A stretch of 36,088 nucleotides of DNA. Origin: an uncultured Gammaproteobacteria bacterium (lineage in GTDB: Bacteria; Patescibacteriota; Microgenomatia; 0-14-0-10-38-17). Shown here piece after piece: positions 3,027 through 33,858 of this stretch (positions are counted from its first letter, which is position 1; every line of letters begins with the position of its first letter). The stretch is from NCBI GenBank assembly GCA_964624185.1, contig CAZUWK010000002.1, forward strand, positions 1 through 36,088. The letters are read 5' to 3'. Made by a program: the position numbers and the translations under genes. The notes beneath the pieces were generated by a model, which saw nothing but the letters and a program-made list of their open reading frames with translations, was not told the origin of the DNA and did not search any database.

Positions 3027-3047
3027 AACAAGAAGGGGGTGAGAAAA

Positions 3048-6229: not shown

Positions 6230-6257
6230 TTGACAAGGGAAATAAAAGGTTTATAAT
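6230..6257 (+). promoter_or_regulatory. sigma70-type promoter TTGACA-N16-TATAAT
   Basis: TTGACA lies at 6230-6235 and TATAAT at 6252-6257, 30 nt upstream of the ATG at 6288. Confidence 0.6.
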
Positions 6258-6287
6258 GGGTATATATTCACAAAGAGTTAGCCCTTT

Positions 6288-6791
6288 ATGCCTAAGAAAA
6301 AGAAAGTTCGCCAAGTTGCCTTTGATCCGGAAGTAACCTATTTTAAGCCGCGAGGGGTGGCTCTTTCCTCTTTAAAAGAGATAAGTCTAAATCTAGATGA
6401 GTTAGAAGCCCTGCGGTTGGTGGATTTGGAGGACCAAGAGCAAACCGCGGCGGCTAAAAAAATGGCCATTTCTCAATCAACCTTACAAAGAACTTTGGTT
6501 AAGGCTCGTAAAAAAGTTGCCCAAGCCCTAGTGGAGGGCCAGGCAATAAAAATTAAAGGGGGTGAGGTAATTATGGTCGGATTTGGTCGAGGTCGAGGTC
6601 AGGGTGGTGGGCGAGGCCCGTCAACAGGTTCAGGGCGAGGACGGATGGGAGGATCGTTTTCTGCCGGTCCGGGAGGAGTTTGCGTTTGCACTAATCCCGA
6701 TTGCCAACATGAAATGACCCATCAGGCCGGGGTTCCCTGTTATCAGGCGAAATGTCCTAAATGCGGCAGCCCGATGGTTAGAAAACGATAA
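6288..6791 (+). CDS. DUF134/UPF0251 DNA-binding protein fused to an RGG-rich linker and a Cys-rich zinc-ribbon tail
   Basis: The N-terminus, PEVTYFKPRGV...LNLDELEALRLVDLEDQEQTAAAKKMAISQSTLQRTLVKARKKVAQALVEGQAIKIKGG, is the DUF134 pattern. The tail reads GFGRGRGQGGGRGPSTGSGRGRMGG followed by CVCTNPDCQHEMTHQAGVPCYQAKCPKCG. Confidence 0.7.
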   Translation: MPKKKKVRQVAFDPEVTYFKPRGVALSSLKEISLNLDELEALRLVDLEDQEQTAAAKKMAISQSTLQRTLVKARKKVAQALVEGQAIKIKGGEVIMVGFGRGRGQGGGRGPSTGSGRGRMGGSFSAGPGGVCVCTNPDCQHEMTHQAGVPCYQAKCPKCGSPMVRKR

Positions 6792-6797
6792 ATTTTT

Positions 6798-7193
6798 ATG
6801 AAAATTGCTATTTGCGCATCAGGACAAGATTTAGAAAGCCAGGTTAATCCTCGTTTTGGTCGTTGCCCTTATTTTTTGTTGGTTGATTCTGAAACCAAGG
6901 AATTTGAGATTCTAGAAAACACGGCCGGAATGGCTCCTCGTGGAGCGGGAGTTTCGGCGGCCCAAATGGTGGCTAACAAGAAGGCGGCGGCGGTTTTAGG
7001 GGTTAATTTTGGCCCCAACGCCGTTAATGTTTTAGGAGGAGCGGGAATTAAGCTTTATGCTCTTCCACCGGAAAAGTCTTTTGTTAGTATTGCCGAAGCC
7101 TTAGAAATGTATCGAGGGGGAAAGCTAGAAGAAGTCAAAAAAGCAACAGGCCCAGGATGGGGTTTCCAAAAAGGAGGTAGGCGTGGTCGATAA
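6798..7193 (+). CDS. NifX/NifB-C-terminal-like protein (dinitrogenase FeMo-cofactor-binding fold family)
   Basis: 131 aa. KIAICASGQDLESQVNPRFGRCPYFLLVDSETKEFEILEN...AVLGVNFGPNAVNVLGGAGIKLY matches the family pattern HFGRAPYF...G.nA...L...GI. Confidence 0.75.
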   Translation: MKIAICASGQDLESQVNPRFGRCPYFLLVDSETKEFEILENTAGMAPRGAGVSAAQMVANKKAAAVLGVNFGPNAVNVLGGAGIKLYALPPEKSFVSIAEALEMYRGGKLEEVKKATGPGWGFQKGGRRGR

Positions 7194-8439
7194 TAACAAA
7201 AAAACCGGTTTGGCTAAGGGAGAAAGGTTGGCCGGTTTGGCGATTTGGCTGGAAGGGGCTTTGGCCCTCTCAAAGGCTGTTATTGGCCTTGCTTCCGGTA
7301 GCCTGGTACTGATAACTGATGCTATTCATAGTGCCTCTGATTTACTCTCTATTATTACCTCTTGGCTGGGTTTAAGAATTGCCCAAAAGAAAGCTACCAA
7401 ACGCTTTTCTTACGGCTATTACAAAGCGGAAAGCGTTGGCGCCTTAATAATTTCGGCTTTAATTATTTATGGTTTTTGGGAAATGTTTTCTCAGGGGCTA
7501 TCCAGTCTTACCCGCCCATCCCAGGTTTCTATTCCCCTTTTGGCGATGGGGGTTTCCTTAGTTGATGCTTTATTTTTGTTTTTCTTTGGTAATTATGAAG
7601 TTCGGGTGGGCGAGGAAATTAACGCTCAAAGCTTAATTGCTATGGGTAAGGAAAATAGAACCCACATTTTTTCTTCGAGCGCGGTTCTAATTGGTACTTT
7701 GGCGGCTTATTATCAAATTCCCTATCTTGAAGGGATAATCACCATGGGTATTTCTTTATTGATTTTGGAAATTGGTTTGTCTTCAGGTAAAGAAGCGGTT
7801 TTGTCATTAATGGATGTTAGTCCGGGCAAAGAAGTGGAGGAAAAAGTTGCCAAGGCCATTGAGTCGGCGCCAGGGGTGGAGGAATTTTGGGATTTGAAAT
7901 TAAGAAAATCGGGCCCTTATGTATTTGGCCAAGTTAAGGTAGGGGTAAGAAAGTTTATTGACGTTTCCCGGGCCCATAAGGTTGCCGATAAGATTGAAAA
8001 AGAGGTCAAAAAGGTAGTTGCCAATGTTGACTCTTTGGCGGTTCATATTGAGCCGTTTAGGAGTGATTTTTGTCATTTAGTGATTCCGGTTAAAGATAAA
8101 AAAGATTTGGAATCGACTCTTGATAACCGCTTCGGTCGAGCGCCGTATTTTTTGTTTGTTAATTTAGAAAAAGATGAAATTAGGGGCTTTTATTTTATTG
8201 ACAATAAGTTTAAAAATAAAAAAGTTCGGGCCGGTTTAGCAGCGGCAAAACTAATTGTCGATCAAAAAAGTCAGGTCTTAATCGCCAATCAGGTCGGCGA
8301 GATTTCTTTTCATGCTCTTCACGACAACTTAATTGATATTTATCAGACAAAAAAAGCCAAAACCGCCAAAGAAGCGATTAGCTTATTTTTGAAGGGAGAA
8401 ATTGATCAGTTGGTCGAACCAACAAAGGAAAAAAATTAA
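7183..8439 (+). CDS. cation diffusion facilitator (CDF) transporter fused to a C-terminal NifX-like domain
   Basis: The six-TM N-terminal part carries the TM2 motif DAIHSASDLLS. A CDF cytoplasmic domain follows (VEEFWDLKLRKSGPYVFGQVKVGV...VHIEP). The last ~115 aa read HLVIPVKDKKDLESTLDNRFGRAPYFLFVNLEKDE...VLIANQVGEISFHALHDNLIDIY, repeating the NifX-like pattern of the preceding gene. The start overlaps the upstream stop by 11 nt. Confidence 0.7.
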   Translation: MVDNNKKTGLAKGERLAGLAIWLEGALALSKAVIGLASGSLVLITDAIHSASDLLSIITSWLGLRIAQKKATKRFSYGYYKAESVGALIISALIIYGFWEMFSQGLSSLTRPSQVSIPLLAMGVSLVDALFLFFFGNYEVRVGEEINAQSLIAMGKENRTHIFSSSAVLIGTLAAYYQIPYLEGIITMGISLLILEIGLSSGKEAVLSLMDVSPGKEVEEKVAKAIESAPGVEEFWDLKLRKSGPYVFGQVKVGVRKFIDVSRAHKVADKIEKEVKKVVANVDSLAVHIEPFRSDFCHLVIPVKDKKDLESTLDNRFGRAPYFLFVNLEKDEIRGFYFIDNKFKNKKVRAGLAAAKLIVDQKSQVLIANQVGEISFHALHDNLIDIYQTKKAKTAKEAISLFLKGEIDQLVEPTKEKN

Positions 8440-9297
8440 ATGGCTGGTGTAAAAACGGTGGCTATCACTGGCGGTAAGGGTGGCGTTGGCAAATCAACGG
8501 TGGCGATTCTTTTGGCCAACAAGCTTCGAAAAGAGGGTAAAAGAGTGGTTTTGGCTGATTGTGATGTTGAATGCCCCAACGGCTATCTTCTTTTAGGCCA
8601 AGAATTAGATAAGCCAGCCAAGAAAGTAACGGCCCAATTCCCTAAATTAATAAAGGAAAAGTGTCAAACCCGCCTGCCGGACGGGCAGGAGTGCGGCCTC
8701 TGTGTTGACAAGTGCCGCTCTAAGGCTATTTTCCAAGCCCCTGGCCAATACCCAATTTTTTTGGAAGCGCTTTGTTCCGGTTGCGGCCTATGCTGGCATC
8801 TTTGCCCCCATCAGGCCATTTCGATTAAGAAAAAAGTTATTGGCGAAATTTTTCAAAACAAAATAACAGATAATTTTTATTTAGTAACCGGTCAATCGGT
8901 AGGAGTAGTCGAAGAATCGGGACCAATAGTTAGCCAAACTAAAAAGTTGGCCCAAGAATTAGCTGAAAAAATTGAAGCTGATTATTTATTGGTTGATACG
9001 GCCGTAGGCTTGCATTGCGGCGTAATTCGGGCCCTAATGGGAGCGGATTTAGCCTTTGCGGTGGCTGAACCCACCCCCTTGGGGGCCCATGATTTGAAGT
9101 TAATTTTAGAGTTGTTATCTATTCTTAAGGTAAGGGCTAAAATTATTCTTAATCAGGCCGATTTAGGAGTAAAAGAGCCAATTGCCAAAATTGCCCAAGA
9201 GAAAAAAACGCCGATAGAATATCAATTACCTTATTCTAAAGAACTGGCTAAAGCTTATTCACAAGGAAAATTAGCAAAAATTAATATTTTTTCATGA
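8440..9297 (+). CDS. MinD/ParA-superfamily P-loop ATPase with inserted 4Fe-4S ferredoxin domain
   Basis: It has the deviant Walker A GGKGGVGKST and the Cys motifs CGLCVDKC and CSGCGLCWHLCP. It starts immediately after the upstream stop. Confidence 0.75.
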   Translation: MAGVKTVAITGGKGGVGKSTVAILLANKLRKEGKRVVLADCDVECPNGYLLLGQELDKPAKKVTAQFPKLIKEKCQTRLPDGQECGLCVDKCRSKAIFQAPGQYPIFLEALCSGCGLCWHLCPHQAISIKKKVIGEIFQNKITDNFYLVTGQSVGVVEESGPIVSQTKKLAQELAEKIEADYLLVDTAVGLHCGVIRALMGADLAFAVAEPTPLGAHDLKLILELLSILKVRAKIILNQADLGVKEPIAKIAQEKKTPIEYQLPYSKELAKAYSQGKLAKINIFS

Positions 9298-10181
9298 CTA
9301 AAATTGCCGTTGTTTCCGGTAAGGGCGGGGTAGGCAAATCAATGCTCTCCTCTTCTCTTTGTCTTTATTTATCCCAAAATCAAAAAATTGTTGCTGTTGA
9401 TGGCGACGTTGATGCTCCTAACCTTCATTTGTGGTTAGGATTAGGTGAATCCTGGGATGAAGAGAAAGAAATTTCTGTTTTTGAAAAACCGGTTTTTGAT
9501 TTGGGTAAATGCACCGGCTGTGGAAGGTGTGCCCAAATTTGTGCCTTTGGGGCTTTGGAAATGAAAAAAGGCCAGCCAAATTTAAACAGATTTATCTGTG
9601 AGGGTTGTGGAGCTTGCGAAGAAATTTGTCCAGTGGGGGCGATTAAAATGAAACCGGTAGGAGGGGCCAAAATTAGGATTAAAAAAGATGCTGGCGGTTT
9701 TCCCTTATTTTCGGCCCAGCTTTATCCGGGCCAAACTGGTTCGGGTAAAGTAGTTGACCAGATACTCAATAGGGCCGAGCATTTTTTTTACCAAACGATG
9801 GTAATTGATGCTCCGGCCGGAACCGGCTGTCCAGTAATTGCCGTTTTAAAAGAAGCGGATTTTGTCATTTTAGTTACCGAACCTACCCCCTCAGGCTTTA
9901 CCGATTTAAAACGAGCCCTGGGGGTGGTTGACCATTTTGGGCTTCCTTTCGGGGTTGTTGTTAATAAGTGGGATCTTAATCCATCTTATGTTAAGAAAAT
10001 AGTTCATTTTGCCGGGCAAAACTTTTTAGGGAAAATTAGCTATAATCAAAAAATATTTTCGGCTCTGGCTAATTTAGAACCGATTATGACTACCGATTTG
10101 CCGACCAAGCAAGAAATGAAAAAAATTTTTTTAAGACTCCTTGATCGCCTAGCAAGACCACTAATTACCCGGTTGTGTTAA
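9294..10181 (+). CDS. MinD/ParA-superfamily P-loop ATPase with inserted 2x[4Fe-4S] ferredoxin domain (paralogue)
   Basis: It has SGKGGVGKS plus CTGCGRCAQIC and CEGCGACEEICP. Its start forms an ATGA overlap with the upstream gene. Confidence 0.75.
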   Translation: MTKIAVVSGKGGVGKSMLSSSLCLYLSQNQKIVAVDGDVDAPNLHLWLGLGESWDEEKEISVFEKPVFDLGKCTGCGRCAQICAFGALEMKKGQPNLNRFICEGCGACEEICPVGAIKMKPVGGAKIRIKKDAGGFPLFSAQLYPGQTGSGKVVDQILNRAEHFFYQTMVIDAPAGTGCPVIAVLKEADFVILVTEPTPSGFTDLKRALGVVDHFGLPFGVVVNKWDLNPSYVKKIVHFAGQNFLGKISYNQKIFSALANLEPIMTTDLPTKQEMKKIFLRLLDRLARPLITRLC

Positions 10182-10218
10182 AATTTAATCTTAGGGGGAA
10201 ATCAGTCTAGATAATTAA

Positions 10219-11427
10219 ATGGAAATAACAAAGAAAAACTTTTTAGTAACCATTGCCGCTGTTTTTCTGTTAATTTTTGGTTTATTTATTCCCGCCAAAA
10301 TTGAGGCTCAAGAAAAGATCTCTCTTCATTTATTTTGGTCTTATGGTTGTCCTCATTGCGAGGAGGAAAAGATTTTTCTTAATAACCTGAAAGATCAATA
10401 TCCCGAATTAACGATTAAGGCCTATGAAGTAACTTCTAATCGGCCCAATTCAATTTTGCTGGAAAAAACCGGAGAAGCGTTAGGGATAAATATTTCCGGA
10501 GTGCCATTTACCATTATTGGCCAGGACTTTCTTATTGGTTATGAGAGTGATGAAACTACCGGCCGAAGGATTGAAGAGATGATAAGGTCGGCCACAGAGA
10601 ATGATCATGATGACTTAGTTGGTAACTTATTGTCTGCCGAGCAGTCAAATCAAAACGAGCAAGCTCAAGTAAAAGGGGCCGACACTATAAGAGTACCGGT
10701 TTTTGGCGATCTAGAGATTGCCAAACTTTCTCTTCCCCTGTTGACCTTTGTGGTGGCTCTTTTGGACGGCTTTAACCCTTGCGCCATGTGGACTTTAATT
10801 TTTCTAATTAGCTTATTGTTGGGCATGAAAGACAAAAAGCGAAGGTGGATTTTAGGAACTGCTTTTATTGTTACTAGCGGGGCAATTTATTTCTTGTTTC
10901 TTTCGGCTTGGCTAAATCTCTTTTTATTTTTAGGTTGGGTAACCTGGATTCGAATTTTGATTGGTTTGATAGCCTTGGTGGCCGGCGGATATTATTTGAG
11001 AGATTTTTGGGTTAATCGGGAGGGAGTTTGCCCGGTAACCGGCAACCAAAAGAGGCAAAAAATTTTCCAGAAAATAAAAGCTATTACCCAAAAAAGGCAA
11101 TTTCTCTTGGCCCTGCTGGGAATAATATTACTAGCGGTTGCTGTTAATGCGGTTGAGCTGGTTTGTTCAGCTGGTTTGCCGGCTATTTATACTCAAGTTT
11201 TGGCCTTGGCTAATTTGCCTACCTGGCAATATTATCTTTATCTTATTTTTTATGTGATTATTTTTATGATCGATGATTTATTTGTTTTTTTTGCCGCCAT
11301 GATTACTCTTAGGGTAACCGGGATTCAAACTAAGTATGCCCGTTATTCTCATTTAATTGGCGGTTTGTTAATGCTGGTTATTGGTTTACTGCTTTTGTTT
11401 AAACCGGGATTATTAATGTTTGGTTAA
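10219..11427 (+). CDS. thioredoxin-fold (CPHC) domain fused to a polytopic membrane domain with conserved cysteines; putative transmembrane thiol-disulfide oxidoreductase
   Basis: 402 aa with an N-terminal signal or TM segment. WSYGCPHCEEEK is a thioredoxin/DsbA-type CxxC motif. Six or more TM segments follow, carrying LDGFNPCAMW and ELVCSAGLP. Confidence 0.45.
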   Translation: MEITKKNFLVTIAAVFLLIFGLFIPAKIEAQEKISLHLFWSYGCPHCEEEKIFLNNLKDQYPELTIKAYEVTSNRPNSILLEKTGEALGINISGVPFTIIGQDFLIGYESDETTGRRIEEMIRSATENDHDDLVGNLLSAEQSNQNEQAQVKGADTIRVPVFGDLEIAKLSLPLLTFVVALLDGFNPCAMWTLIFLISLLLGMKDKKRRWILGTAFIVTSGAIYFLFLSAWLNLFLFLGWVTWIRILIGLIALVAGGYYLRDFWVNREGVCPVTGNQKRQKIFQKIKAITQKRQFLLALLGIILLAVAVNAVELVCSAGLPAIYTQVLALANLPTWQYYLYLIFYVIIFMIDDLFVFFAAMITLRVTGIQTKYARYSHLIGGLLMLVIGLLLLFKPGLLMFG

Positions 11428-11840
11428 AATTACAAGGTTGTTATGAAGAATGTCAGCAGGGCGGTAAGGAAAGAATTAGAACTTGGTCTTTAATTTTGGC
11501 GGCCACTGCGGCCACTGCAGTTTGTCGGCCAGCATTCGTATTTAATTTGTTTGTCTCATACTTTGATTTTTGCGAATTATTAAAGAATTAATTACTGGTG
11601 GTTCACCACCCTTTATAGTTCAAATTAAAAAATTGAGAATAGCGATGTTTTATTTGATCGACCGAAGAAACATTTTTTAAAAAAGAGGTAGCAAGAGAGC
11701 AAAAAACAATCAGTTTTTTGAGGGTAATGGCCATTTTCTTTCTTAAAATATTCATCTCATAAATGCTTGTCGATGTCGATAATCTTGCTTTCGGGGCAAT
11801 TTTTCTAGTAAAATAAGGAAGGTAGGAGGAGGTGATAATA

Positions 11841-12525: not shown

Positions 12526-14460
12526 TTAGAAAATTACTTGGCTTAGGAGTTCGTCTATTTGGGCGGTGGCCATGCCAATCACCTTATCGCCACCGCCGTA
12601 GTAGATAAAAAGAGTATTTTTCACCAAGATCGCTCCGCAGGGAAAAACCACGTTAGGAACATCACCAATTTGTTCATATTTTTCGGTGGGCTTGATAATT
12701 GGGTATTTGCTTCGATAAAGAACTTTGCCGGGGTCGTTTTGGTCCAAAATCATCATCCCAACCCGATATTGATGGTCGATATCGGAAACACCGTGGTACA
12801 GGAGCAGCCAGCCGGAGTTAATTTTAATTGGTGGGCCGGCAATACCGATTTTTTCTCCATCCCAGCCATTAGGCCGAGGATAAATTGCCTGCTCTTTTTT
12901 AAGCCAATTTTCTTCTTTTTTTAGTTCTTCTAGGCTATTAACGTAGTCAATGGCGATATCTCTCCCCCCGGTTCGGTGCAGGATAACATATTGGCCATTG
13001 ATTTTCTCCGGTAGGAGACAACTGTTTTTATTGTGAACGCCAAATTTAGAGATGGCAACCGGATCAGACCACTCCCAGCGATGATTAACAAAATCATTAA
13101 CGGTGATTGATGACATCGCTACGCGAGGAGGATCAATGCCGTTATAGGCGGTATAAAACATGTAAAACTGGTCCCCCATTTTGGTAATTCGGGGGTCTTC
13201 ACAACCAGAAAGCCGCCCTGGTTCTTTTTTTTGTTCAAAGTCCCCTCGGGGGGTATAAATTGGCTCATTAAAACGCTTAAAGTGGAAACCGTCATCGCTT
13301 TCGGCTAAGCCCAAAGTGGAGGTATGATCCGGCGATTGAGCCCGATAAACCAAATAAAATTTGTCCTGTTCGTAAACTGCGGCCGGGTTAAAAACGGAAT
13401 TAGCCTCCCATAAATTTTCTTCGCGGGGAGTAAGAATAGGATTATGATGATATTTAGTGGCCAAAAAAACTTCCTTGGTAGGGTTATGGAACATATTTTT
13501 AAATAAGTCGTTGATGTCAATTTCGGCCAGGGCGCAATGATTATCGGCGGCACCATAGTAAAGGCGTAAGCGTTTACCCTCAAGCGTGGCTCCGGAAGGA
13601 AAAACCACATTGTCGACGGCGCCTTTTTTTTCGTATTTTGTTTTTGGGGCCATTATTGGTCCATCGGTTCGGGCAATAATTTTTTTTGGGTCATTTTTAT
13701 CTAATAAGGCGGCTTCGATGCTAAAAAGCCGCTTTTCGGGAGTGTAGTAGTTTTGAATATGGGCATAAATTAGCAACCAGCCATGTTTAGTTTTAATTGG
13801 TACCGTGCCAACTTCGATTTGATCGGAGTTTAAGCGGCGCAAGTTAATGGAGTGTCGATAATGATCCAGGCATTTATACCATTTGTTCCAAAAACCCGGC
13901 GACCAAATATCGGACAGCTGATTAAAATAGGCCAAACCAATTCGAGCCGGTGGCTGGTCGGTATCGGCGGTTAAGACGGCCGCATATTGACCGTTAATCT
14001 TTTCCGGGAAAAGAGCCATCGCCTTAGCGTTAAAATGGGTGACCAGGTGTTTGGCTTGAATGGTTTTTAAATCTTTGCTAATGGCCAGGCCAACCCTGAT
14101 CCCCTCTGGTTTTGGCGGATAGCAAGACAGGGCGGTGTAAAAAATATAATATTTGTTTTTTATTTTGGTAACTCTGGGGTCTTCACAACCGTATTTTTCC
14201 CATTCTTTTTCCGGTTCAACTAAAACCCCTCTTTTGGTAAAGTCGACGCCATTTTTGCTAACAGCATGAGCAATGGTAGAAACGGTCATTTTTTGGCCCA
14301 GATGCTCTTTTTTGGCCGACATCGCCCGATATAGGAGATGATATTGGCCGTCTTTGACAACGGTGGGATTGAAAGCCCCCTCGGTTTCCCAAAGATTTTT
14401 TGGATCAGGAGAAAGGATTGGGTTCTTAGGATGGCGGACCACTTTCAAATTATTGATCAT
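12526..14460 (-). CDS. tandem double GH130-family module protein (beta-mannoside phosphorylase/glycosidase-like)
   Basis: Two copies of the GH130 pattern are present. Copy 1 reads NPTVVKDGQYHLLYRA...CEDPRVTKIKNKYYIFYTA...YYGAADNHCALAEI. Copy 2 reads NPAAVYEQDKFYLVYRA...CEDPRITKMGDQFYMFYTA...YYGGGDKVIGMATA. I prefer ATG 14460 (MINNLKVVRHPKNPIL), which lies 4 nt after the upstream stop, over the track start at 14490. Confidence 0.75.
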   Translation of the reverse strand: MINNLKVVRHPKNPILSPDPKNLWETEGAFNPTVVKDGQYHLLYRAMSAKKEHLGQKMTVSTIAHAVSKNGVDFTKRGVLVEPEKEWEKYGCEDPRVTKIKNKYYIFYTALSCYPPKPEGIRVGLAISKDLKTIQAKHLVTHFNAKAMALFPEKINGQYAAVLTADTDQPPARIGLAYFNQLSDIWSPGFWNKWYKCLDHYRHSINLRRLNSDQIEVGTVPIKTKHGWLLIYAHIQNYYTPEKRLFSIEAALLDKNDPKKIIARTDGPIMAPKTKYEKKGAVDNVVFPSGATLEGKRLRLYYGAADNHCALAEIDINDLFKNMFHNPTKEVFLATKYHHNPILTPREENLWEANSVFNPAAVYEQDKFYLVYRAQSPDHTSTLGLAESDDGFHFKRFNEPIYTPRGDFEQKKEPGRLSGCEDPRITKMGDQFYMFYTAYNGIDPPRVAMSSITVNDFVNHRWEWSDPVAISKFGVHNKNSCLLPEKINGQYVILHRTGGRDIAIDYVNSLEELKKEENWLKKEQAIYPRPNGWDGEKIGIAGPPIKINSGWLLLYHGVSDIDHQYRVGMMILDQNDPGKVLYRSKYPIIKPTEKYEQIGDVPNVVFPCGAILVKNTLFIYYGGGDKVIGMATAQIDELLSQVIF

Positions 14461-14464
14461 TTTT

Positions 14465-16069
14465 TTAGTTTTTTGGTTTAATAACAGCATTTTCTAGTTT
14501 AGCATTACCGGTAGTTTTTAGCTGATCCAAAAAGCGGTCTAAGTTAGCCGTGGCAACGCAAACATAAGAGTCGGCGCCGCCGTAATAAACAAATAAATTA
14601 TTACCAATGATAACCGCGCCACAAGGGTAAACTACTCCGGCCTTAAAGCCGTCGTTGTCATACCACTGATCAGGTTCAATAATTGGCTGTCGGGAGCGAT
14701 AAAGAAGCCTGGTTGGGTTATTTAAATCTAAAAGCATCGCTCCCACTTTATAGCGATGACCTTCTTTGTCATCAACGGCCTGGTAAATTAACAACCAACC
14801 ATCTTTAGTTTTTAGGGGTGGAGCGCCAGCGCCGATTTTCCGGCTGTCCCACCACATTGGCGAACGGGGGCGAATGTGATATTGGCCTTTTAAATATTTA
14901 CCATTAGTAAAGTCGAGAGAATCAACAAAGTCAATTAGAATATCAGGGAAAATTCGGTGGAAAATAACATATTGGCCGTTAATTTTTTCCGGTAAAATAC
15001 AAGCGCTTTTATCAACCACCCCGGGCGGTGAAACTAGAATCGGCTTTTTCCAAAGCCAGTTGCGGTTTAAAAAATCTTTTAGGGCAATTGAAGTGAGGGC
15101 AATTCGGGGTTCGGTGACACCATCAAAAGCAACGTAAGTCATATAAATTCGCTCCTCAACTCGGGTTAGGCGAGGATCTTCACAGCCGCCACAACCACCG
15201 GAAGAATAGGCAGTGCTTAATTGACCAGGCTTTTTAGTGCTTTCAAAAGGCTGGGTAGGGACAAAAACCGGTCGGTCAAACCGCTCATCAATTTTGATGC
15301 CGTCACTGCTGGTGGCGTAGCCAATGGAGGAAACATAGTCAAAACCTTGGGCTCGATAGAAAATATGAACCTTACCGGCCTCATAAATTGCCGCCGGATT
15401 AAAGGTATTAAAGGCTTCCCAAGCATTTTTTGATTCAGGCCTAATAAGTGGGTTTTGGGCGGGTTTGGTTAACTGATAGCTCTTCCTAATTTCGATTTGG
15501 CCGCTGATACGATAATCGGGATAAACTATAGCCCAAATTGCCCCGTCGATTAACCAATAAGCTAAATATTGCCCCCTGATTTTTAATAAATCAATAAAGA
15601 TTGGCGAGTTGTTTTTTGAGGATGGGTTTATTTGCCAAACCGGTTCACTACTGCGCCAAAGAAGCTTGGGGTCTTTTTCCTGAGAAAAGGCTATTACCCC
15701 AATTTCGACTTGATTGTTTTGAGGGTTTTGATAGTGGAAAAAGACCAAAACTCCCTCATTGGTGGTAAAAGCATTTTCGATTTTTAAAGATTCTGGGTCA
15801 ACATATTCACTACCCGGGGCGAGCAGATGATGGTAGCGCTGGTTTAGGAAAGCGATTTTCTTTTCTTTGATTTTGGGATAGGTTTTGACAAATAGGCTTT
15901 TGGGCCGGGCCTTTTTAAAGTTAAAACCATCACTGCTTTTTAAAATTTGCCCGGTTCGGAGCGGTTTTTTATTTTGGATGATTGAATAAGCGGCGCCTTT
16001 ATAATGGCAAAAAAAGAAGGTTTTGCTTTGGGAGCATTGAGCTTTTGTAAAGCCTAGAACTTTAAACAT
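14465..16069 (-). CDS. GH130-family protein with an N-terminal degenerate GH130-like module
   Basis: The C-terminal ~330 aa read NPAAIYEAGKVHIFYRAQG...GCEDPRLTRVEERIYMTYVAFDG...YYGGADSYVCVATA. The N-terminal ~200 aa show weaker propeller-like patterns (LKSSDGFNFKK and IGVIAFSQEKDPKLLWRS). Confidence 0.7.
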   Translation of the reverse strand: MFKVLGFTKAQCSQSKTFFFCHYKGAAYSIIQNKKPLRTGQILKSSDGFNFKKARPKSLFVKTYPKIKEKKIAFLNQRYHHLLAPGSEYVDPESLKIENAFTTNEGVLVFFHYQNPQNNQVEIGVIAFSQEKDPKLLWRSSEPVWQINPSSKNNSPIFIDLLKIRGQYLAYWLIDGAIWAIVYPDYRISGQIEIRKSYQLTKPAQNPLIRPESKNAWEAFNTFNPAAIYEAGKVHIFYRAQGFDYVSSIGYATSSDGIKIDERFDRPVFVPTQPFESTKKPGQLSTAYSSGGCGGCEDPRLTRVEERIYMTYVAFDGVTEPRIALTSIALKDFLNRNWLWKKPILVSPPGVVDKSACILPEKINGQYVIFHRIFPDILIDFVDSLDFTNGKYLKGQYHIRPRSPMWWDSRKIGAGAPPLKTKDGWLLIYQAVDDKEGHRYKVGAMLLDLNNPTRLLYRSRQPIIEPDQWYDNDGFKAGVVYPCGAVIIGNNLFVYYGGADSYVCVATANLDRFLDQLKTTGNAKLENAVIKPKN

Positions 16070-25735: not shown

Positions 25736-26710
25736 TTATTGGTTGATGATTAGACTGCCAGCCCCTACTTGAGAGTTAATGACTATTTGGTCTTTTTTTT
25801 GTTTTTGACTTGAGGGCGGAGAAAAATTACCCTCTTTTCCCAATCCCCTGATTTCCTCTTCATTGATAACAATTTTTCCTGCTCCAAGATGATAGTTGAG
25901 GTTAATTCCGATTTCTTCGGGCAGATAAATAATGATTTGACCCGCGTCAAGATTAACCGCGACTTCTTCTTGGGGCAGGGAATGTTGTGATAACTTCAAA
26001 GAAAGTTGGCCAGCCCCGACTTCGATGTTGAGGGCGTCAATTTGAATATCAGTAAAATTAATATTAGCTTGACCGGCGGCTAATTTTAAATCGAGGTCAG
26101 TCAAAAGATCGGTTTTACCTAAAAAGCCTTGATAAGAGATCTTGTCGACAACTCGACTTGGCCAAAGAGGTCCATCTTGGTAATTAGTAAAGTTAATAAT
26201 AATGTTCTTTTTTTCATCAAGATCGGTGGTTATTTTTGGTTCTCCAAAAGGATCTTGGTATTGAACCTTAAGCCGAAAAAGATCAGAGTTTTCTTTTTGA
26301 TCCGAAAGATCAAATTGACCGGAAAGAAGATTAATTTCTAGCTTTCTTTTATTTAAGTTGGGATAATTTTCATTAGTAATAATAAGCTCTTGATTTTTTG
26401 CCTTAGGGAAAGTTTTCTTTGACCAGTAAGACAAATTTTTTAAAACAGATTGTCGAGGAATAAGGGTCGGCTTAAGTTGGATGAAACTTAGAAAGAAAAC
26501 TAGGCCAGTAACCGCTAAGACAAAGATAGCCAAGAGGGTTTTTCCCCAAGAGGAATCAGGTAAAATTAATTCTAATCCGCTAAAAATTAAGATGATGGGC
26601 CAAAACTGCCAAAGGGTTGTCCAAATTGCCCAAGGTAAAAGCCCGAAGTTGTTAAGCAGAAAAATAACACCGGTGACAACAAGAATTAATGGCCAAGTAA
26701 TTTTTTTCAT
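25736..26710 (-). CDS. LiaF-like membrane protein with C-terminal toast-rack (DUF4097/DUF2154-like) repeat domain
   Basis: The N-terminus has multiple TM segments. The C-terminus has repeated beta-strand motifs: AAGQANINF, VGAGQLSLKL, LDAGQIIIYLP, LGAGKIVIN and VGAGSLIIN. Confidence 0.45.
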   Translation of the reverse strand: MKKITWPLILVVTGVIFLLNNFGLLPWAIWTTLWQFWPIILIFSGLELILPDSSWGKTLLAIFVLAVTGLVFFLSFIQLKPTLIPRQSVLKNLSYWSKKTFPKAKNQELIITNENYPNLNKRKLEINLLSGQFDLSDQKENSDLFRLKVQYQDPFGEPKITTDLDEKKNIIINFTNYQDGPLWPSRVVDKISYQGFLGKTDLLTDLDLKLAAGQANINFTDIQIDALNIEVGAGQLSLKLSQHSLPQEEVAVNLDAGQIIIYLPEEIGINLNYHLGAGKIVINEEEIRGLGKEGNFSPPSSQKQKKDQIVINSQVGAGSLIINQ

Positions 26711-26713
26711 ACC

Positions 26714-27193
26714 CTATGAACGAAAAAGGAGAGCTAGACCAAGGACAACCAGCAGTAATGGCCAAAGCTGAGAGAAATTAAAAAGCCTTGAAAGAAGGCC
26801 AAAATTTAGCAAAATAAGATAAACTCCCAGGAAAACCAGGGTCAATCCAAACCATAGCCTAACCCCCTTTTTTCTAGAAATTTTTTGAGCACTTTGACTG
26901 TATTTCTTGGCTTGAAATTTGATTTCTTGGGCATTTTTTTTGAGAACTTCTTCATCTTTATTGTCAATGTTGGATTGAGGAGGGATAATTAGCCATAGAA
27001 TAAGATAAAAAATAACCCCCCCACCGGACAGGCCAAGTAAGACAAACAAAATTCTAATAATAACGGGGTCAAAGTTAAAATATTTGCCTAGGCCTCCTGC
27101 TACTCCAGCCAAAAGACGATTTTTTTCCGAACGATAAATTTTTTTAGGTGGCAAAGACTCTTTTTTTGGTTTGTTATTATTTTTTTCAACCAT
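26714..27193 (-). CDS. PspC-domain membrane protein
   Basis: KIYRSEKNRLLAGVAGGLGKYFNFDPVIIRILFVLL is the PspC-domain signature. Further TM segments follow. Confidence 0.7.
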   Translation of the reverse strand: MVEKNNNKPKKESLPPKKIYRSEKNRLLAGVAGGLGKYFNFDPVIIRILFVLLGLSGGGVIFYLILWLIIPPQSNIDNKDEEVLKKNAQEIKFQAKKYSQSAQKISRKKGVRLWFGLTLVFLGVYLILLNFGLLSRLFNFSQLWPLLLVVLGLALLFRS

Positions 27194-29044: not shown

Positions 29045-30466
29045 TTACGGCGTTTCCGGTAGGGGCTCATCTTTTGTTTCCGGAATAGGATTAGGCTCAG
29101 TTTGGTTGTTATTATCTAAATCGGAAACAAGGTCGGCAACGGCATTAATGATATTTGAATCAGGCAAATAAGAGTAGAGTTCTCTTTGCCAATCATTTCG
29201 GGAGATAAAAACGTGGGGGTCAACTCCTAAGCCTTCAATGGGTTGACCGTCTTCTCTTAGGGTGAGACTGTGAACTAAAAACATAGAGTATATTTGGTGG
29301 GAGCTAATTTGATTGTCGAGTTTAAAAACTCTTTCTACTGTTCCCCAGCCTCGAGTGGTGTTGCCGACCAAAACACCAACATTATATTTTTTCAAAACCG
29401 AAGCCATCACTTCAGCTGAGCTTTGAGAGTTTTCATTAATTAAAATGATCACTTTCTTATATTGAACCAGGCTAGGCAGCCAGCCGGTTCGGGTTTTGTA
29501 ATCGGTTTTTTCGTCTTGGTGAAAAAATTGATAGGCATATTGGTCTTGGCCAATAAAAGGGCCTAAAAAATAGGGCAGATTATCAATTGCTCCGCCGATA
29601 TTATCCCGAAGATCAAAAATTAATGTTTCTACCCCGGGTTGCCCCTGGACTTTTTGACTAACCCTTTGCAGTTCGTCAAAAGTGGTTGGCGAAAACTTTT
29701 TTAGATGAATATGGAAGATACTGTCATTAATTAGTTGGTAGCTCATAGTTGGTTCTACTCCGGAGACATCATAAAGTTGACGGGCCTCATCATCTTTTAA
29801 AACTTCGTAGGCTTGATTAATCTGGGCTAATTTTTCTTGGGCTTGGGGAGTATCTTTCCCGGACAGTTCTTGTTTTAAGTTTTGGTAGGTTTTTTCTATT
29901 TTTTCTTGATCGGCCTTTTGGTCAATTCCCAAGGCCTGGTAATGGTCTTGATCGGTAATGTTGCGGACCATATTATTTAATTCTTGTTCCTCTTTTTGGC
30001 TGTAAAGATGGCTGCGGCCAAATGGTTCTAGGTTATTTAAAACCAAATTATTAAGCTGAACAATAAATTCTTCTTTGGTTTCTTCACTGTCAATTTGTTT
30101 TAAGGTGTCTCTTAGGGTGATTAGTAGGGTTTGGCGGTTTTTCTCTTTCGGGTTTTGGGGCTGGCCGGTTAATTTTTCGATAGCCAAAAGAAACAGAGAG
30201 GTTAAGTCTTCGTCACTAATTTTTTTCCAGTAATTAGCCTTAATTTTGTCATAAATCTCGCCGGTGAAGGCTAAATAGGAGTTGCTTTCTTCGCCTAAAA
30301 TAGCGGCTGGTTGAGGTTGGTTTTTTTGTTGAAAATAATAACCCCCCAGACCACCAACAACTAAAGCGGCGATAGTAATAACCAGAAAAATCGCCGGATT
30401 AATAGGCCATTTTCTTTTAAGGCTAAAAAATTTTAGTTTTTGATTTTTTCCTTCGGGAGTGAGCAT
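29045..30466 (-). CDS. membrane-anchored S41 (C-terminal processing peptidase)-family protein with an internal J-like domain
   Basis: The protein has an N-terminal TM segment. The J-like segment reads DHYQALGIDQKADQEKIEKTYQNLKQELSGKDTPQAQEKLAQINQAYEVLKDDEARQLYD. The S41 core reads LIFDLRDNIGGAID and ILINENSQSSAEVMASVL. Confidence 0.6.
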   Translation of the reverse strand: MLTPEGKNQKLKFFSLKRKWPINPAIFLVITIAALVVGGLGGYYFQQKNQPQPAAILGEESNSYLAFTGEIYDKIKANYWKKISDEDLTSLFLLAIEKLTGQPQNPKEKNRQTLLITLRDTLKQIDSEETKEEFIVQLNNLVLNNLEPFGRSHLYSQKEEQELNNMVRNITDQDHYQALGIDQKADQEKIEKTYQNLKQELSGKDTPQAQEKLAQINQAYEVLKDDEARQLYDVSGVEPTMSYQLINDSIFHIHLKKFSPTTFDELQRVSQKVQGQPGVETLIFDLRDNIGGAIDNLPYFLGPFIGQDQYAYQFFHQDEKTDYKTRTGWLPSLVQYKKVIILINENSQSSAEVMASVLKKYNVGVLVGNTTRGWGTVERVFKLDNQISSHQIYSMFLVHSLTLREDGQPIEGLGVDPHVFISRNDWQRELYSYLPDSNIINAVADLVSDLDNNNQTEPNPIPETKDEPLPETP

Positions 30467-31904: not shown

Positions 31905-32270
31905 ATGGCAATGTTAACCAAGAAGCACCGATTGCCCAAAAAGAGAATTGACCAGGTTAAAGGTGGCGGATGTTATTTCCAAACAGCTTTTTTTACTTTA
32001 GCTTATCTTTCTGGAAAAACAACTGATAGCCAATTTGCTTTTGTTCTTTCTAAAAGGGTGAGCAAAAAAGCTACCATTAGAAATAAAACCAAGCGTTTAA
32101 TTGCCGGTTCAGTTCGCGAAATTATGACCGATCTCAAGGATGGTTTTTGGGTGGTCTTCTTAGTTAAGAGAGCCGCCTTAGATCAGAATAAAGCCGCTTT
32201 GTCTGAGGCAGTTCGAGAATCTTTTGCTCAGATTGGTTTATTGGGAAAAGATGAAAAAGCTGGTTCTTAG
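31905..32270 (+). CDS. rnpA: ribonuclease P protein component
   Basis: It lies after rpmH. Motifs are KKHRLPKKRI...FAFVLSKRVSKKATIRNKTKRLIAGSVRE. Confidence 0.75.
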   Translation: MAMLTKKHRLPKKRIDQVKGGGCYFQTAFFTLAYLSGKTTDSQFAFVLSKRVSKKATIRNKTKRLIAGSVREIMTDLKDGFWVVFLVKRAALDQNKAALSEAVRESFAQIGLLGKDEKAGS

Positions 32271-32454
32271 GGCGATTTCCTATTATCAGGCTTTACCGGC
32301 CTTTTGGGGCCGGCCTTGTCGATTTGTGCCCTCCTGTTCGGAATATTGTTATCAGGCAATTTACGATCATGGTATACTACAAGGCAGCCTGATGGGGGTA
32401 AAGCGGATTTTGCGCTGTCATCCTTGGAGTAAGGGAGGAGTTGACTTACCCTAG
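32251..32454 (+). CDS. yidD: membrane protein insertion efficiency factor YidD
   Basis: ISYYQ...CRFVPSCSEYCYQAIYDHGILQGSLMGVKRILRCHPWSKGGVDLP matches the family. ATG 32251 (MKKLVL) is preferred; it overlaps the rnpA 3' end. Confidence 0.8.
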   Translation: MKKLVLRAISYYQALPAFWGRPCRFVPSCSEYCYQAIYDHGILQGSLMGVKRILRCHPWSKGGVDLP

Positions 32455-32630
32455 AAAAATTGCTATATGGTTGTATGGTTAAATTGTTTTTTTGGGTAGT
32501 CTTATGACTAAGGCTAATTAATAATTTAGCAATGTAACAATTTAACAATGAGTTTAATTAATAAATCTTTCCCGTCGACAAGGACAGAGTAAATTTTAGC
32601 TTTTCAAATTTTAACCGTAAAAATCTCTTT

Positions 32631-33404
32631 ATGTTCGAAACTATTTTTATTCAACCTCTAGCTAATTTATTGGTTTTGTTTACTAATCTCTTCGGTTCTT
32701 TAGGCTGGGGAATAATTGTTATTACCCTGCTTATTAAGGCGCTTCTTATTCCGGTTATGATCCCAAGTTTAAAATCGGCTGAAAAAATGAAGCAATTGGC
32801 CCCGAAACTGGAAAAATTAAAGAAAAAATATGGGGACAACAAGGAAAAATTAGCTAAAGCCCAGATGGCCCTTTATCGGTCTGAAGGGGTTAATCCCGCC
32901 GCCGGCTGTTTGCCGTCCATTATTCAGCTGGTGATTTTACTGGCCCTATTTCAAGTTTTTAACCGGGTTCTTAATCCCGAATCGATCGATCAACTAGCCA
33001 AGATGCTTTACTCCGGTATTTCCCTGCCTTCAGGAGGAATTAGCTTTTCTTTTTGGTATCTTGATTTGACTCGGCCCGACCTATTTATGGGCCGTTTACC
33101 AGGGTTATTTTTAACTTTTTCGGCCATAGCCCAAATCTTAACGGCCCGGCTTTCAGCCCCAACCATTAAGGGGGCTAAAACCAGCGCTCAAAAAACCCCC
33201 CCAAAAAGCGACGACATAATGGTGTCAATGCAGAAACAGATGACCTTTTTAATGCCGCTAATGACTGTTATTATCGGTTTTCGCCTTCCGGCTGGTTTGA
33301 CCCTTTACTGGTTTGTTTTTTCTCTGACCGGCTTAATTCAGCAATATATAATCAAGAAAAACGCCGATTTGCCAGCCAATAAAAGGCAGGTGAACCATGG
33401 ATAA
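32631..33404 (+). CDS. yidC: membrane protein insertase YidC (short form)
   Basis: The pattern is LLIKALLIPVMIPSLKSAEKMKQLAPKLEKLKKKYGDNKEKLAKAQMALYRSEGVNPAAGCLPSIIQLVIL, with a C-terminal LPAGLTLYWFVFSL. Confidence 0.8.
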   Translation: MFETIFIQPLANLLVLFTNLFGSLGWGIIVITLLIKALLIPVMIPSLKSAEKMKQLAPKLEKLKKKYGDNKEKLAKAQMALYRSEGVNPAAGCLPSIIQLVILLALFQVFNRVLNPESIDQLAKMLYSGISLPSGGISFSFWYLDLTRPDLFMGRLPGLFLTFSAIAQILTARLSAPTIKGAKTSAQKTPPKSDDIMVSMQKQMTFLMPLMTVIIGFRLPAGLTLYWFVFSLTGLIQQYIIKKNADLPANKRQVNHG

Positions 33405-33858
33405 GAAAGTGTTGACCACGATTGATAAAGTTCTAGAAGAGTTAATGGAAAGTTTGGGTGTTTTAGTCCAAAGCCAGATTAGCCTTAACGAAGAAGAAGC
33501 CACGGTTTTAGTTGAATTATCGGCCCAAAAAGATAATGCTCTTCTGGTTGGCTATCATGGTAAAAATTTATCGGCCCTGCAAACCATTTTAGGCCTAATG
33601 GTTTTTAAGAAAACCGGTCAGTGGTTCCATATTGTTATTGACGTTGACGGTTATCGCCAGAAGCGTCAAGCTCAAGTTGAAGAGATGGCTCGTCGGGCCC
33701 TTGACCAGGCTAAGACCACCGGTCAATCAATTGCGATTGCTAACCTTAGCCCTCAAGAGAGGCGTCAGGTTCATTTATTTTTTAAGGACGATCCCGATGT
33801 CGAAACTCACTCTGAGGGTGAGGGCCGTAATCGCCAGTTAATTATTAGTCTTAAATAG
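33397..33858 (+). CDS. jag: Jag/KhpB-type KH + R3H RNA-binding protein
   Basis: It lies after yidC with an 8-nt overlap. LSPQERRQVHLFFKDDPDVETHSEGEG carries the R3H motif. Confidence 0.7.
   Translation: MDKKVLTTIDKVLEELMESLGVLVQSQISLNEEEATVLVELSAQKDNALLVGYHGKNLSALQTILGLMVFKKTGQWFHIVIDVDGYRQKRQAQVEEMARRALDQAKTTGQSIAIANLSPQERRQVHLFFKDDPDVETHSEGEGRNRQLIISLK

Follow-up and report, generated by a model that had tools for sequence, protein, structure and literature searches.

The six genes described here lie in a 36,088-nucleotide stretch of DNA (the window: positions 1 to 36,088, forward strand, of contig CAZUWK010000002.1, GenBank assembly GCA_964624185.1) that is deposited under the name of an uncultured Gammaproteobacteria bacterium. 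At their centre is a fusion of a cation diffusion facilitator (CDF) transporter with a NifX-like domain, accompanied by a DUF134-type regulator, a small NifX-like protein, two MinD-type ATPases with inserted ferredoxin domains and a membrane protein with a thioredoxin fold. A first reading of the DNA (the original prediction) had taken these genes for a metal- or metallocluster-handling operon. Judged by sequence comparison, genes 1 to 6 are one co-inherited and co-regulated unit centred on a predicted divalent-cation exporter. The genome is a reduced one, as had been supposed; it belongs to the candidate phyla radiation (CPR) and its nearest relatives are metagenome-assembled genomes (MAGs) of Candidatus Shapirobacteria. 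The closest relatives of the fusion protein are likewise found in Candidatus Shapirobacteria and other Patescibacteria MAGs (86-92% identity).

Organization of the operon

All six plus-strand open reading frames of the original prediction are in place, and every Pfam domain that it named scores above its gathering threshold in searches with profile hidden Markov models. The genes and the elements around them are as follows (HTH, helix-turn-helix).

6230-6257, plus strand: sigma-70-type promoter (TTGACA 6230-6235, 16-nt spacer, TATAAT 6252-6257)
6254-6273, plus strand: operator-like 20-bp palindrome TAATGGGTATATATTCACAA, overlapping the -10 box; the single such site in the window
6288-6791, plus strand: gene 1, 167 residues, three-part fusion of HTH, Gly/Arg-rich linker and Cys-rich module
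6288-6572, plus strand: gene 1 residues 1-95, DUF134/UPF0251 HTH (PF02001), putative repressor
6573-6677, plus strand: gene 1 residues 96-130, Gly/Arg-rich cationic linker (GFGRGRGQGGGRG...GSGRGRMGG), 60% Gly+Arg
6678-6791, plus strand: gene 1 residues 131-167, Cys-rich zinc-ribbon-like module, putative metal or Fe-S sensor
6798-7193, plus strand: gene 2, small NifX-like (Nitro_FeMo-Co) protein, 131 aa, isoelectric point (pI) 9.4
7183-8439, plus strand: gene 3, GTG start, CDF::NifX-like fusion
8440-9297, plus strand: gene 4 (ATPase1), MinD/ParA-type ATPase with inserted 2x[4Fe-4S] ferredoxin domain (Orp3/Orp4-like)
9294-10181, plus strand: gene 5 (ATPase2), MinD/ParA-ferredoxin ATPase, paralogue of gene 4, with C-terminal amphipathic helix
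10219-11427, plus strand: gene 6, N-terminal signal anchor, predicted extracytoplasmic thioredoxin-fold domain (CPHC) and polytopic domain with conserved Cys (NPCA, CSAGLP)
11597-11620, plus strand: terminator-like hairpin GGTGGTTCACCACC followed by CTTTAT, about 170 nt past gene 6 (from a pattern scan and the sequence itself)

The promoter matches the consensus at 12 of 12 positions and is the sole perfect match between 5000 and 12600. This block is conserved in three relatives (L003, L004, and L006) even though their upstream genes differ, and in many Patescibacteria loci a TTGACA box is followed by the operator. The proposed coupling of genes 1 to 5 can be read directly from the junctions: a gap of 6 nt between genes 1 and 2 (6791/6798), an 11-nt overlap of genes 2 and 3 (7183-7193) with an AAGGAGG ribosome-binding site 6 nt ahead of the GTG, a stop codon that abuts the next start between genes 3 and 4 (8439/8440), and an ATGA overlap of genes 4 and 5 (9294-9297). 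Gene 6 does begin after a gap of 37 nt, and a pattern scan detected no terminator-like site between genes 5 and 6. Rfam and tRNA scans of the window gave no matches, so no riboswitch or RNA feature accounts for the leader.

Distribution and gene neighbourhood of the fusion

The CDF::NifX fusion has at least 232 close homologues, and all 120 that were listed carry the domains Cation_efflux, ZT_dimer, and Nitro_FeMo-Co. An exhaustive search of representatives at 50% identity returned 231 clusters at E <= 1e-30, with identities down to ~27%, most of which align over both parts of the query, and a scan of one genome per species found the fusion in 249 species. The hosts include Patescibacteria, Aenigmatarchaeota, Woesearchaeota, Micrarchaeota, Bathyarchaeota, Thermoplasmata/Methanomassiliicoccales, and some Actinomycetota MAGs. 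In the source annotation these proteins are only called "cation diffusion facilitator family transporter". The literature searched contained no published description of a CDF::NifX fusion or of a DUF134/COG1149/COG1342/DUF5320 system, and the one paper that treats both CDF and NifX concerns separate magnetosome proteins. All folds in the operon are known, while its architecture and regulon appear to be undescribed.

For the neighbourhoods, all open reading frames of 80 loci were translated and matched to the window proteins, and occurrences were counted in the 47 loci with enough flanking DNA:

DUF134 or Cys-rich protein: 42/47 well-flanked loci
ATPase1: 40/47 well-flanked loci
small NifX-like protein: 39/47 well-flanked loci
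ATPase2: 36/47 well-flanked loci
gene-6-type protein: 18/47 well-flanked loci

The genes thus behave as a co-conserved unit, as the original prediction would have it, and the gene order of the window (DUF134/Cys, NifX-like, CDF::NifX, ATPase, ATPase) is the commonest among 79 loci from very distant lineages. In most cases -8 to +15 nt separate the fusion from the adjacent genes. The expanded operons of other Patescibacteria further include a thioredoxin, an AhpD-like protein, ZIP and ABC-3 metal permeases, a glycosylase of the uracil-DNA glycosylase (UDG) superfamily, and extra NifX-like proteins. The DNA glycosylase gene is found inside the expanded operon of L061 (15214-17452) and in 16 other loci, where it overlaps the genes of the ABC-3 permease and ATPase2; its CxxC-containing N-terminus presumably marks it as an Fe-S-containing enzyme of the family 4/5 type.

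A role in nitrogenase cofactor synthesis was considered and rejected: the window proteins include no nitrogenase component, as had been noted before, and no nif genes were found among the recurrent neighbours in the 80 loci. Many MAGs titled Gammaproteobacteria, Pseudomonadales, or Saccharibacteria (among L007-L083) carry an operon of the Patescibacteria type with 40-64% identity to the window, and these titles look like unreliable placeholder taxonomy.

A candidate operator and its putative regulator

In aligned upstream regions the conservation extends past the promoter hexamers, and a 20-bp palindrome (TTATGGGTATATATTCATAA) is common to distant loci. The family consensus is TTATG[GA][GA]TATATA[TC]TCATAA, and in a Woesearchaeota locus the palindrome is perfect. 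A scan allowing <=3 mismatches over 1.04 Mb found 37 sites in 33/81 sequences, compared to 0.8 expected from shuffled sequences, and almost all of them precede the first operon gene by 20-110 nt, both in bacteria and in DPANN archaea. The presence of the palindrome tracks the HTH gene: a DUF134 HTH gene is encoded in 25/32 loci with the operator vs 13/48 without it (odds ratio 9.6, p ~1e-5, Fisher test, in which many loci are truncated and shared ancestry among loci is ignored, as in the other operator statistics). This lends comparative support to the regulatory role that had been assigned to the DUF134 protein. As these operons encode no DNA-binding domain besides DUF134, the latter is the natural candidate for binding the operator, and the position of the site over the -10 box fits a repressor. 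In the woesearchaeotal locus L057 two perfect copies of the palindrome (TTATGAATATATATTCATAA) occur at 3032 and 8062, each ahead of a different sub-operon. The second copy precedes genes for DUF5320, DUF134, and a gene-6-type protein, which places gene 6 in the putative regulon of this archaeon.

The DUF134 assignment of gene 1 stands (PF02001, 95 bits vs a cutoff of 27, residues 3-95; a Sigma70_r4_2 match is weak), but the protein is more than the plain DUF134 protein that was predicted, since the HTH is followed by the Gly/Arg-rich linker and the Cys-rich module (C132, C134, C139, H141, H145, C151, C156, and C159). The matches to gene 1 in relatives show how these parts combine. They comprise 26 HTH-only proteins of ~92 aa, whose genes usually follow that of ATPase2, 40 small proteins (50-90 aa) that cover residues ~100-167 only, and 16 fusions that resemble gene 1 of the window. 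The small proteins consist of a Gly/Arg-rich stretch followed by the pattern CxCx2-4C...H...PC...CPKCG..M.R. In the archaeal locus L039 (5998-6588) it is the small NifX-like protein that carries the Gly/Arg-rich and Cys-rich module, which in the window is joined to DUF134; the module thus moves between partners.

The Cys-module family has at least 1258 members, nearly all hypothetical and without a Pfam domain, and a Pfam search with the module gave weak zinc-ribbon matches only. We also considered that the module might be DUF5320. This was rejected, as the likeness is limited to the Gly/Arg-rich N-terminal part, and the stretch equivalent to the gene 1 linker in relatives matches DUF5320 at the threshold or slightly under it. 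True DUF5320 proteins, which have a coiled coil, are absent from the window and encoded by separate genes in relatives; in 20 loci they are the first gene after the operator, and their GRGW repeats are even richer than the tail of gene 2. The neighbours of distant Cys-module family members are DUF134, NifX-like proteins, a CDF::NifX fusion, and a MinD ATPase in L085; Mrp with FeS_assembly_P, a NifX-like protein, NifU_N, and a thioredoxin-like membrane protein in L086 (Anaerolineae); and two NifX-like proteins, two MinD-ferredoxin ATPases, and FeS_assembly_P in L087.

The NifX-like proteins and the transporter

Gene 2 contains the Nitro_FeMo-Co domain PF02579 (68.1 bits, cutoff 26.3). Its best match among solved structures is MTH1175 (E 1.6e-21, end-to-end), followed by the Desulfovibrio gigas orange protein (ORP; 2wfb, E 3.9e-13, residues 2-108). 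The protein has a pI of 9.39 and ends in a cationic tail of Gly, Arg, and aromatic residues (GPGWGFQKGGRRGR). The last 20 residues are at least 50% Gly+Arg in 43/58 orthologues of gene 2 vs 2/80 fusions. A tail rich in Gly, Arg, and aromatics is also found in IssA, where it is proposed to wrap anionic thioferrate, and MTH1175 serves as an IssA-type template (Vaccaro 2017, PMC5524996).

Gene 3 combines Cation_efflux (PF01545, 133.1 bits, cutoff 26.6) and ZT_dimer (PF16916, 56.8 bits, cutoff 26.7) with a Nitro_FeMo-Co domain at residues 310-403 (50.9 bits, cutoff 26.3), and TIGR01297 confirms the CDF assignment (207.5 bits, cutoff 82.35). The NifX-like part matches MTH1175 (E 2.5e-10), and the best solved relatives of the CDF part are YiiP of E. 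coli and Shewanella (sequence match E 7e-22). In the AlphaFold2 model the mean confidence (predicted local distance difference test, pLDDT) is 84.9 overall and >90 in the NifX-like domain, and a Foldseek comparison with YiiP 8f6e gives E 4.9e-14 and a TM-score of 0.74 normalised to the target. The transport-site residues D45/D49/H153/D157 of YiiP align to H49/D53/E157/H161, a quartet that is invariant in 48 family members; D46, H49, D53, E157, N158, H161, and H298 are invariant in the family. Transmembrane helices 2 and 5 thus hold four metal-ligand residues in a pattern other than the canonical DD-HD, HD-HD, or ND-DD. The NCBIfam equivalogs that rank highest are the iron-linked MamM, MamB, and FieF together with the manganese exporter MntE, and gene 3 stays below the cutoff (in brackets) of each: MamM 131 (350), MamB 126 (350), MntE 109 (500), and FieF 105 (420). 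Residues H298, R319, N327, N341, K356, and E373 are invariant or nearly so in the fused NifX-like domain.

The ATPases

Genes 4 and 5 both match the Pfam families CbiA/ParA and Fer4, share 31% identity, and have deviant Walker A motifs (GGKGGVGKS in gene 4). In the gene 4 family (62 members) the eight ferredoxin Cys and C193 are present in 100% and C45 in 98%. Gene 5 has two CxxCxxCxxxC motifs and an invariant C179. Beyond the eight ferredoxin Cys, both ATPases have an invariant Cys seven residues past the Walker-B Asp, which we take to recall Cys132 of NifH. Gene 5 ends in an amphipathic helix (KIFLRLLDRLARPL) with a hydrophobic moment of 0.90. Structure matches split into MinD and ferredoxin pieces, and none of them is a solved structure of the MinD-ferredoxin type. 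The first ferredoxin motif of gene 4 (residues 75-92, window 8662-8715) carries a 7-residue insertion, C75-x9-C85-x2-C88-x3-C92, at a place where 60/61 relatives have the canonical CxxCxxCxxxC.

The thioredoxin-fold membrane protein

Gene 6 has no Pfam match above threshold. Its predicted structure (pLDDT 76.8) contains a thioredoxin fold at residues ~34-128 (Foldseek probability 1.0, TM-score ~0.6), which together with an invariant CPHC agrees with the thiol-oxidoreductase type first proposed for this membrane protein. C44, C47, C188, C271, and C316 are invariant. The thioredoxin domain probably faces outward, as a signal anchor precedes it. The membrane domain has no Pfam match and no fold match in the PDB; a paralogue reaches DsbD_2 (22.2, cutoff 24.9) and SfLAP (31.5, cutoff 35) below threshold, and the single conserved Cys in NPCA and in CSAGLP presumably reflect a CcdA-like pattern. 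The family is common throughout Patescibacteria (at least 6125 homologues). In relatives, a gene-6-type protein is sometimes encoded between the two ATPase genes. The original prediction had gene 6 merely trailing the operon, which does not agree with its recurrence in the neighbourhoods and its place behind the second operator copy of L057; on the same co-occurrence figures and operator copy a passenger status was rejected.

Relation to known systems

The original prediction saw in these genes a module without an assigned function. This needs qualification, as relatives of its parts have been studied in the D. vulgaris ORP complex and in IssA-type proteins, although an agreed function is indeed still lacking. 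In D. vulgaris, Orp3, Orp4, and Orp8 co-purify and receive Fe-S clusters, Orp3 and Orp4 have a C-terminal amphipathic helix, and ORP carries an S2MoS2CuS2MoS2 cluster (PMC6345978). The operon described here resembles this complex in its pair of paralogous MinD-like ATPases, both of which contain two [4Fe-4S] ferredoxin motifs, and in the amphipathic helix, which is seen in ATPase2. The single-domain Nitro_FeMo-Co protein of gene 2 corresponds to Orp8, and both systems are confined to anaerobes and include a small Cys-rich partner; a possible counterpart of the Cys-rich module is the small [2Fe-2S] protein Orp5/Dde_3197. However, the operon is without MrpORP (Mrp/NBP35 plus NifX-like), and matches to NF041136 are weak and partial (20-47 bits vs a cutoff of 450). 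Its regulation also differs, with a sigma-70-type promoter and a DUF134 palindrome in place of sigma-54 and the activator DVU2106, and no gene for an enhancer-binding protein was found among the window proteins near the operon. The CDF::NifX fusion and the thioredoxin-membrane protein are additions, and the small NifX-like protein has a cationic Gly/Arg tail.

With IssA of Pyrococcus furiosus (IssA/IssX clades, PMC5524996), gene 2 shares the IPR003731 (NifX-like) domain, a high pI, and the Gly/Arg/aromatic tail, and its nearest solved structure is the IssA-type template. The tail is shorter, with ~15 residues vs 70 in IssA, and gene 2 is encoded together with ATPases and a transporter. Thioferrate and nanoparticles belong to IssA itself, whereas gene 2 is compared to it by sequence and through the proxy MTH1175.

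The transporter part of gene 3 has the six-helix Cation_efflux domain, the cytoplasmic ZT_dimer domain with conserved His and Glu, and the YiiP-like predicted fold of the Fe/Zn clade of CDFs (YiiP/FieF and MamB/MamM), and MamM and MamB are its best-scoring equivalogs. It differs from all of these by the 120-residue NifX-like domain at its C-terminus and from YiiP by the quartet, in which DD-HD is replaced by H49/D53/E157/H161 and the pair of transmembrane helix 5 is inverted (ExxxH). A functional analogy can be drawn to CopA and CopZ, in which P1B-type ATPases with N-terminal HMA domains work beside soluble paralogue chaperones. In both cases a soluble carrier (here gene 2) stands beside a homologous domain on the cytoplasmic side of the transporter (here gene 3), which would pair a chaperone with a transporter-borne acceptor or regulatory domain. 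The folds are unrelated and the transporter class is another, so that a transfer from gene 2 to gene 3 is an analogy.

A proposed self-repressed system for a divalent metal

We tentatively propose, giving it somewhat less than an even chance, that the operon is a self-regulated (self-repressed) system for a divalent transition metal, most likely iron in the form of an iron-sulfide species. The DUF134 HTH protein would bind the palindrome as a repressor, and the Cys-rich module, fused here and a separate gene elsewhere, would sense the metal or cluster load. The small NifX-like protein may hold an anionic metal-sulfide species (a cluster or a thioferrate-like compound), with help from the cationic Gly/Arg tail, in line with the proposal made for IssA. 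The two MinD-ferredoxin ATPases would form a heterodimer that docks on NifX-like domains, like Orp3-Orp4 with Orp8, and could assemble or dismantle the metal-sulfide species at the expense of ATP and low-potential electrons. The NifX-like domain welded to the cytoplasmic end of the YiiP-like CDF would place this machinery at the membrane, as would the amphipathic helix of ATPase2, and surplus metal cation could then be passed to, or gated through, the exporter. Gene 6 would supply thiol-disulfide chemistry on the outer face of the membrane.

The case for iron-sulfur is circumstantial and is made from the IssA-like tails, the Fe-S biology of the ORP complex, the affinity to MamB/MamM/FieF, and the Fe-S assembly genes (NifU_N, Mrp/ApbC, and FeS_assembly_P) beside distant members of the Cys-module family. 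The recurrent ZIP/ABC-3 divalent-metal permeases and thioredoxins of the expanded operons also count for the proposed metal system. Several points weigh against it, however. The predicted quartet H49/D53/E157/H161 fits no characterised CDF specificity motif, and the equivalog scores of gene 3 are all far under their cutoffs. No conserved Cys is found in the fused NifX-like domain across the aligned family members, so that a cluster would have to be bound there non-covalently or electrostatically. ORP, the one close homologue of gene 2 whose cofactor is defined, holds a Mo-Cu cluster and not an Fe-S cluster, and the Cys-rich module resembles a structural zinc ribbon no less than an Fe-S site. 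CDFs normally export, which is a better match to detoxification than to supply. Ten loci keep the Cys-rich protein and the fusion only and four the fusion alone, which indicates that the CDF can work without the ATPases. The limits of the operator statistics belong here as well.

A bolder form of this proposal, which we consider speculative and on balance unlikely, is a machine shared by CPR and DPANN in which iron and sulfide would be stored in protein-bound form, as an anionic polymer or cluster, on the cationic, Gly/Arg-tailed NifX-like, DUF5320, and Cys-rich proteins. The MinD-ferredoxin heterodimer would mobilise this store with ATP and electrons, as NifH acts on cofactor precursors, the CDF would couple membrane iron flux to the state of the store, and a DUF134 repressor with an operator that survived across two domains of life would control the whole.

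Alternative explanations

The main rival to the iron proposal, which we regard as unlikely but serious, is a homeostasis island for zinc or another non-iron divalent metal (Zn, Mn, Co, or Ni). The CDF would then be an ordinary Zn/Mn exporter, the repressor would carry a zinc-sensing ribbon, the NifX-like domains would be buffering or regulatory, and the Fe-S ATPases would be loosely connected. The CDF relatives with solved structures all transport Zn or Mn or are Zn-loaded YiiP, the Cys module matches zinc ribbons only, the ZIP and ABC-3 permeases that recur nearby are typical Zn/Mn/Fe importers, and the fusion occurs without ATPases in some loci. A loose connection is nevertheless hard to reconcile with two ATPases that each have eight invariant ferredoxin Cys and are tightly coupled to the fusion in most loci. 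Moreover, the only known role of NifX-like domains is to carry metal-sulfur cofactors, and Fe-S assembly genes adjoin the distant members of the Cys-module family.

An improbable alternative is that the operon serves the metallation and thiol reduction of exported proteins, with the CDF sending metal outward, gene 6 keeping the target Cys reduced, and the NifX and ATPase parts feeding the exporter. In cytochrome c maturation, heme export works with CcdA-ResA in a comparable manner. The co-occurrence of gene 6 with the fusion, their shared operator in L057, the probably outward-facing thioredoxin domain after a signal anchor, and the soluble thioredoxin and AhpD-like proteins of expanded operons would all fit. 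However, ~60% of the well-flanked loci are without gene 6, its large family is general in Patescibacteria, and no candidate for an extracytoplasmic metalloprotein client was seen in the operons.

The match of gene 2 to D. gigas ORP and the S2MoS2CuS2MoS2 cluster of the latter raise the question whether a Mo-Cu-S cluster is the ligand of gene 2 and of the fused domain, with the operon serving to detoxify thiomolybdate or copper in sulfidic habitats, in the manner of Mo/W-Cu thiometallate handling in Desulfovibrio. We infer that the hosts live in anoxic, probably sulfidic settings, which would suit this role. Yet it is very unlikely, since the substrates of CDFs are divalent cations and neither molybdate nor Cu(I), the recurrent neighbours did not include Mod/Tup transporters, Mo-enzyme genes, or copper ATPases, gene 2 is nearer to the IssA-type MTH1175 than to ORP, and the neighbours indicate Fe-S assembly.

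For the D. vulgaris ORP complex a role in division by positioning of the septum was proposed from its MinD-like ATPases and the misshapen cells of regulator mutants, and a polar localisation of MrpORP was reported. A cell-division or spatial-positioning system with the metal parts as cofactors and not cargo, for which the MinD/ParA-type ATPases with deviant Walker A, the membrane-targeting helix of ATPase2, and the cell-wall gene yceG upstream in the window could be cited, is nonetheless scarcely probable here, because the yceG neighbour is not conserved beyond close relatives, the conserved company is a metal exporter, a metal-type repressor, and metal permeases, and the division role in Desulfovibrio is itself putative.

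Other features of the window

The window contains no SUF/ISC or Feo genes, and apart from the operon it mostly encodes ordinary small-genome housekeeping functions. Upstream of the operon lies yceG, a neighbour that is not conserved past close relatives. Downstream are two adjacent genes of the GH130 (beta-mannoside phosphorylase) type (12526-16069, minus strand), the first of which contains two GH130 stretches within a single protein of 654 aa and is also found downstream of the operon in L003 and L004. A mobile element, an IS200-like Y1 transposase (PF01797; 23065-23787, minus strand), is present amid a compact housekeeping region. Adjacent genes at 25736-27193 (minus strand) encode LiaF-like and PspC-domain membrane proteins, which are types of cell-envelope stress sensor, and a protein of 473 aa (29045-30466, minus strand) has the unusual pairing of a DnaJ J-domain (residues 174-233) with Peptidase_S41. 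The window also contains a cluster of rnpA, yidC, and jag/KhpB (31905-33858, plus strand), of a type that is usually located near the replication origin. Despite this cluster the cumulative GC skew climbs steadily over the whole window without a turning point.

Significance for Patescibacteria and DPANN archaea

Genes for DUF134, small NifX-like, and MinD-ferredoxin proteins are widespread in anaerobes and have no agreed function fifteen years after the ORP complex was described. Through their link to a transporter class of understood chemistry, the likely cargo is narrowed to divalent metal cations and the site of action to the membrane. The IssA-like cationic tails on three proteins of the putative regulon point to an anionic inorganic ligand, and with a defined candidate operator for DUF134, gel shifts and genome scans can address both the regulator and its regulon. 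The family is concentrated in CPR and DPANN, organisms with tiny genomes and few dispensable genes, whose metal physiology is almost unknown. If true, the storage machine outlined above would be a new mode of iron-sulfur homeostasis and would provide a function for the ORP/COG1149/DUF134 genes.

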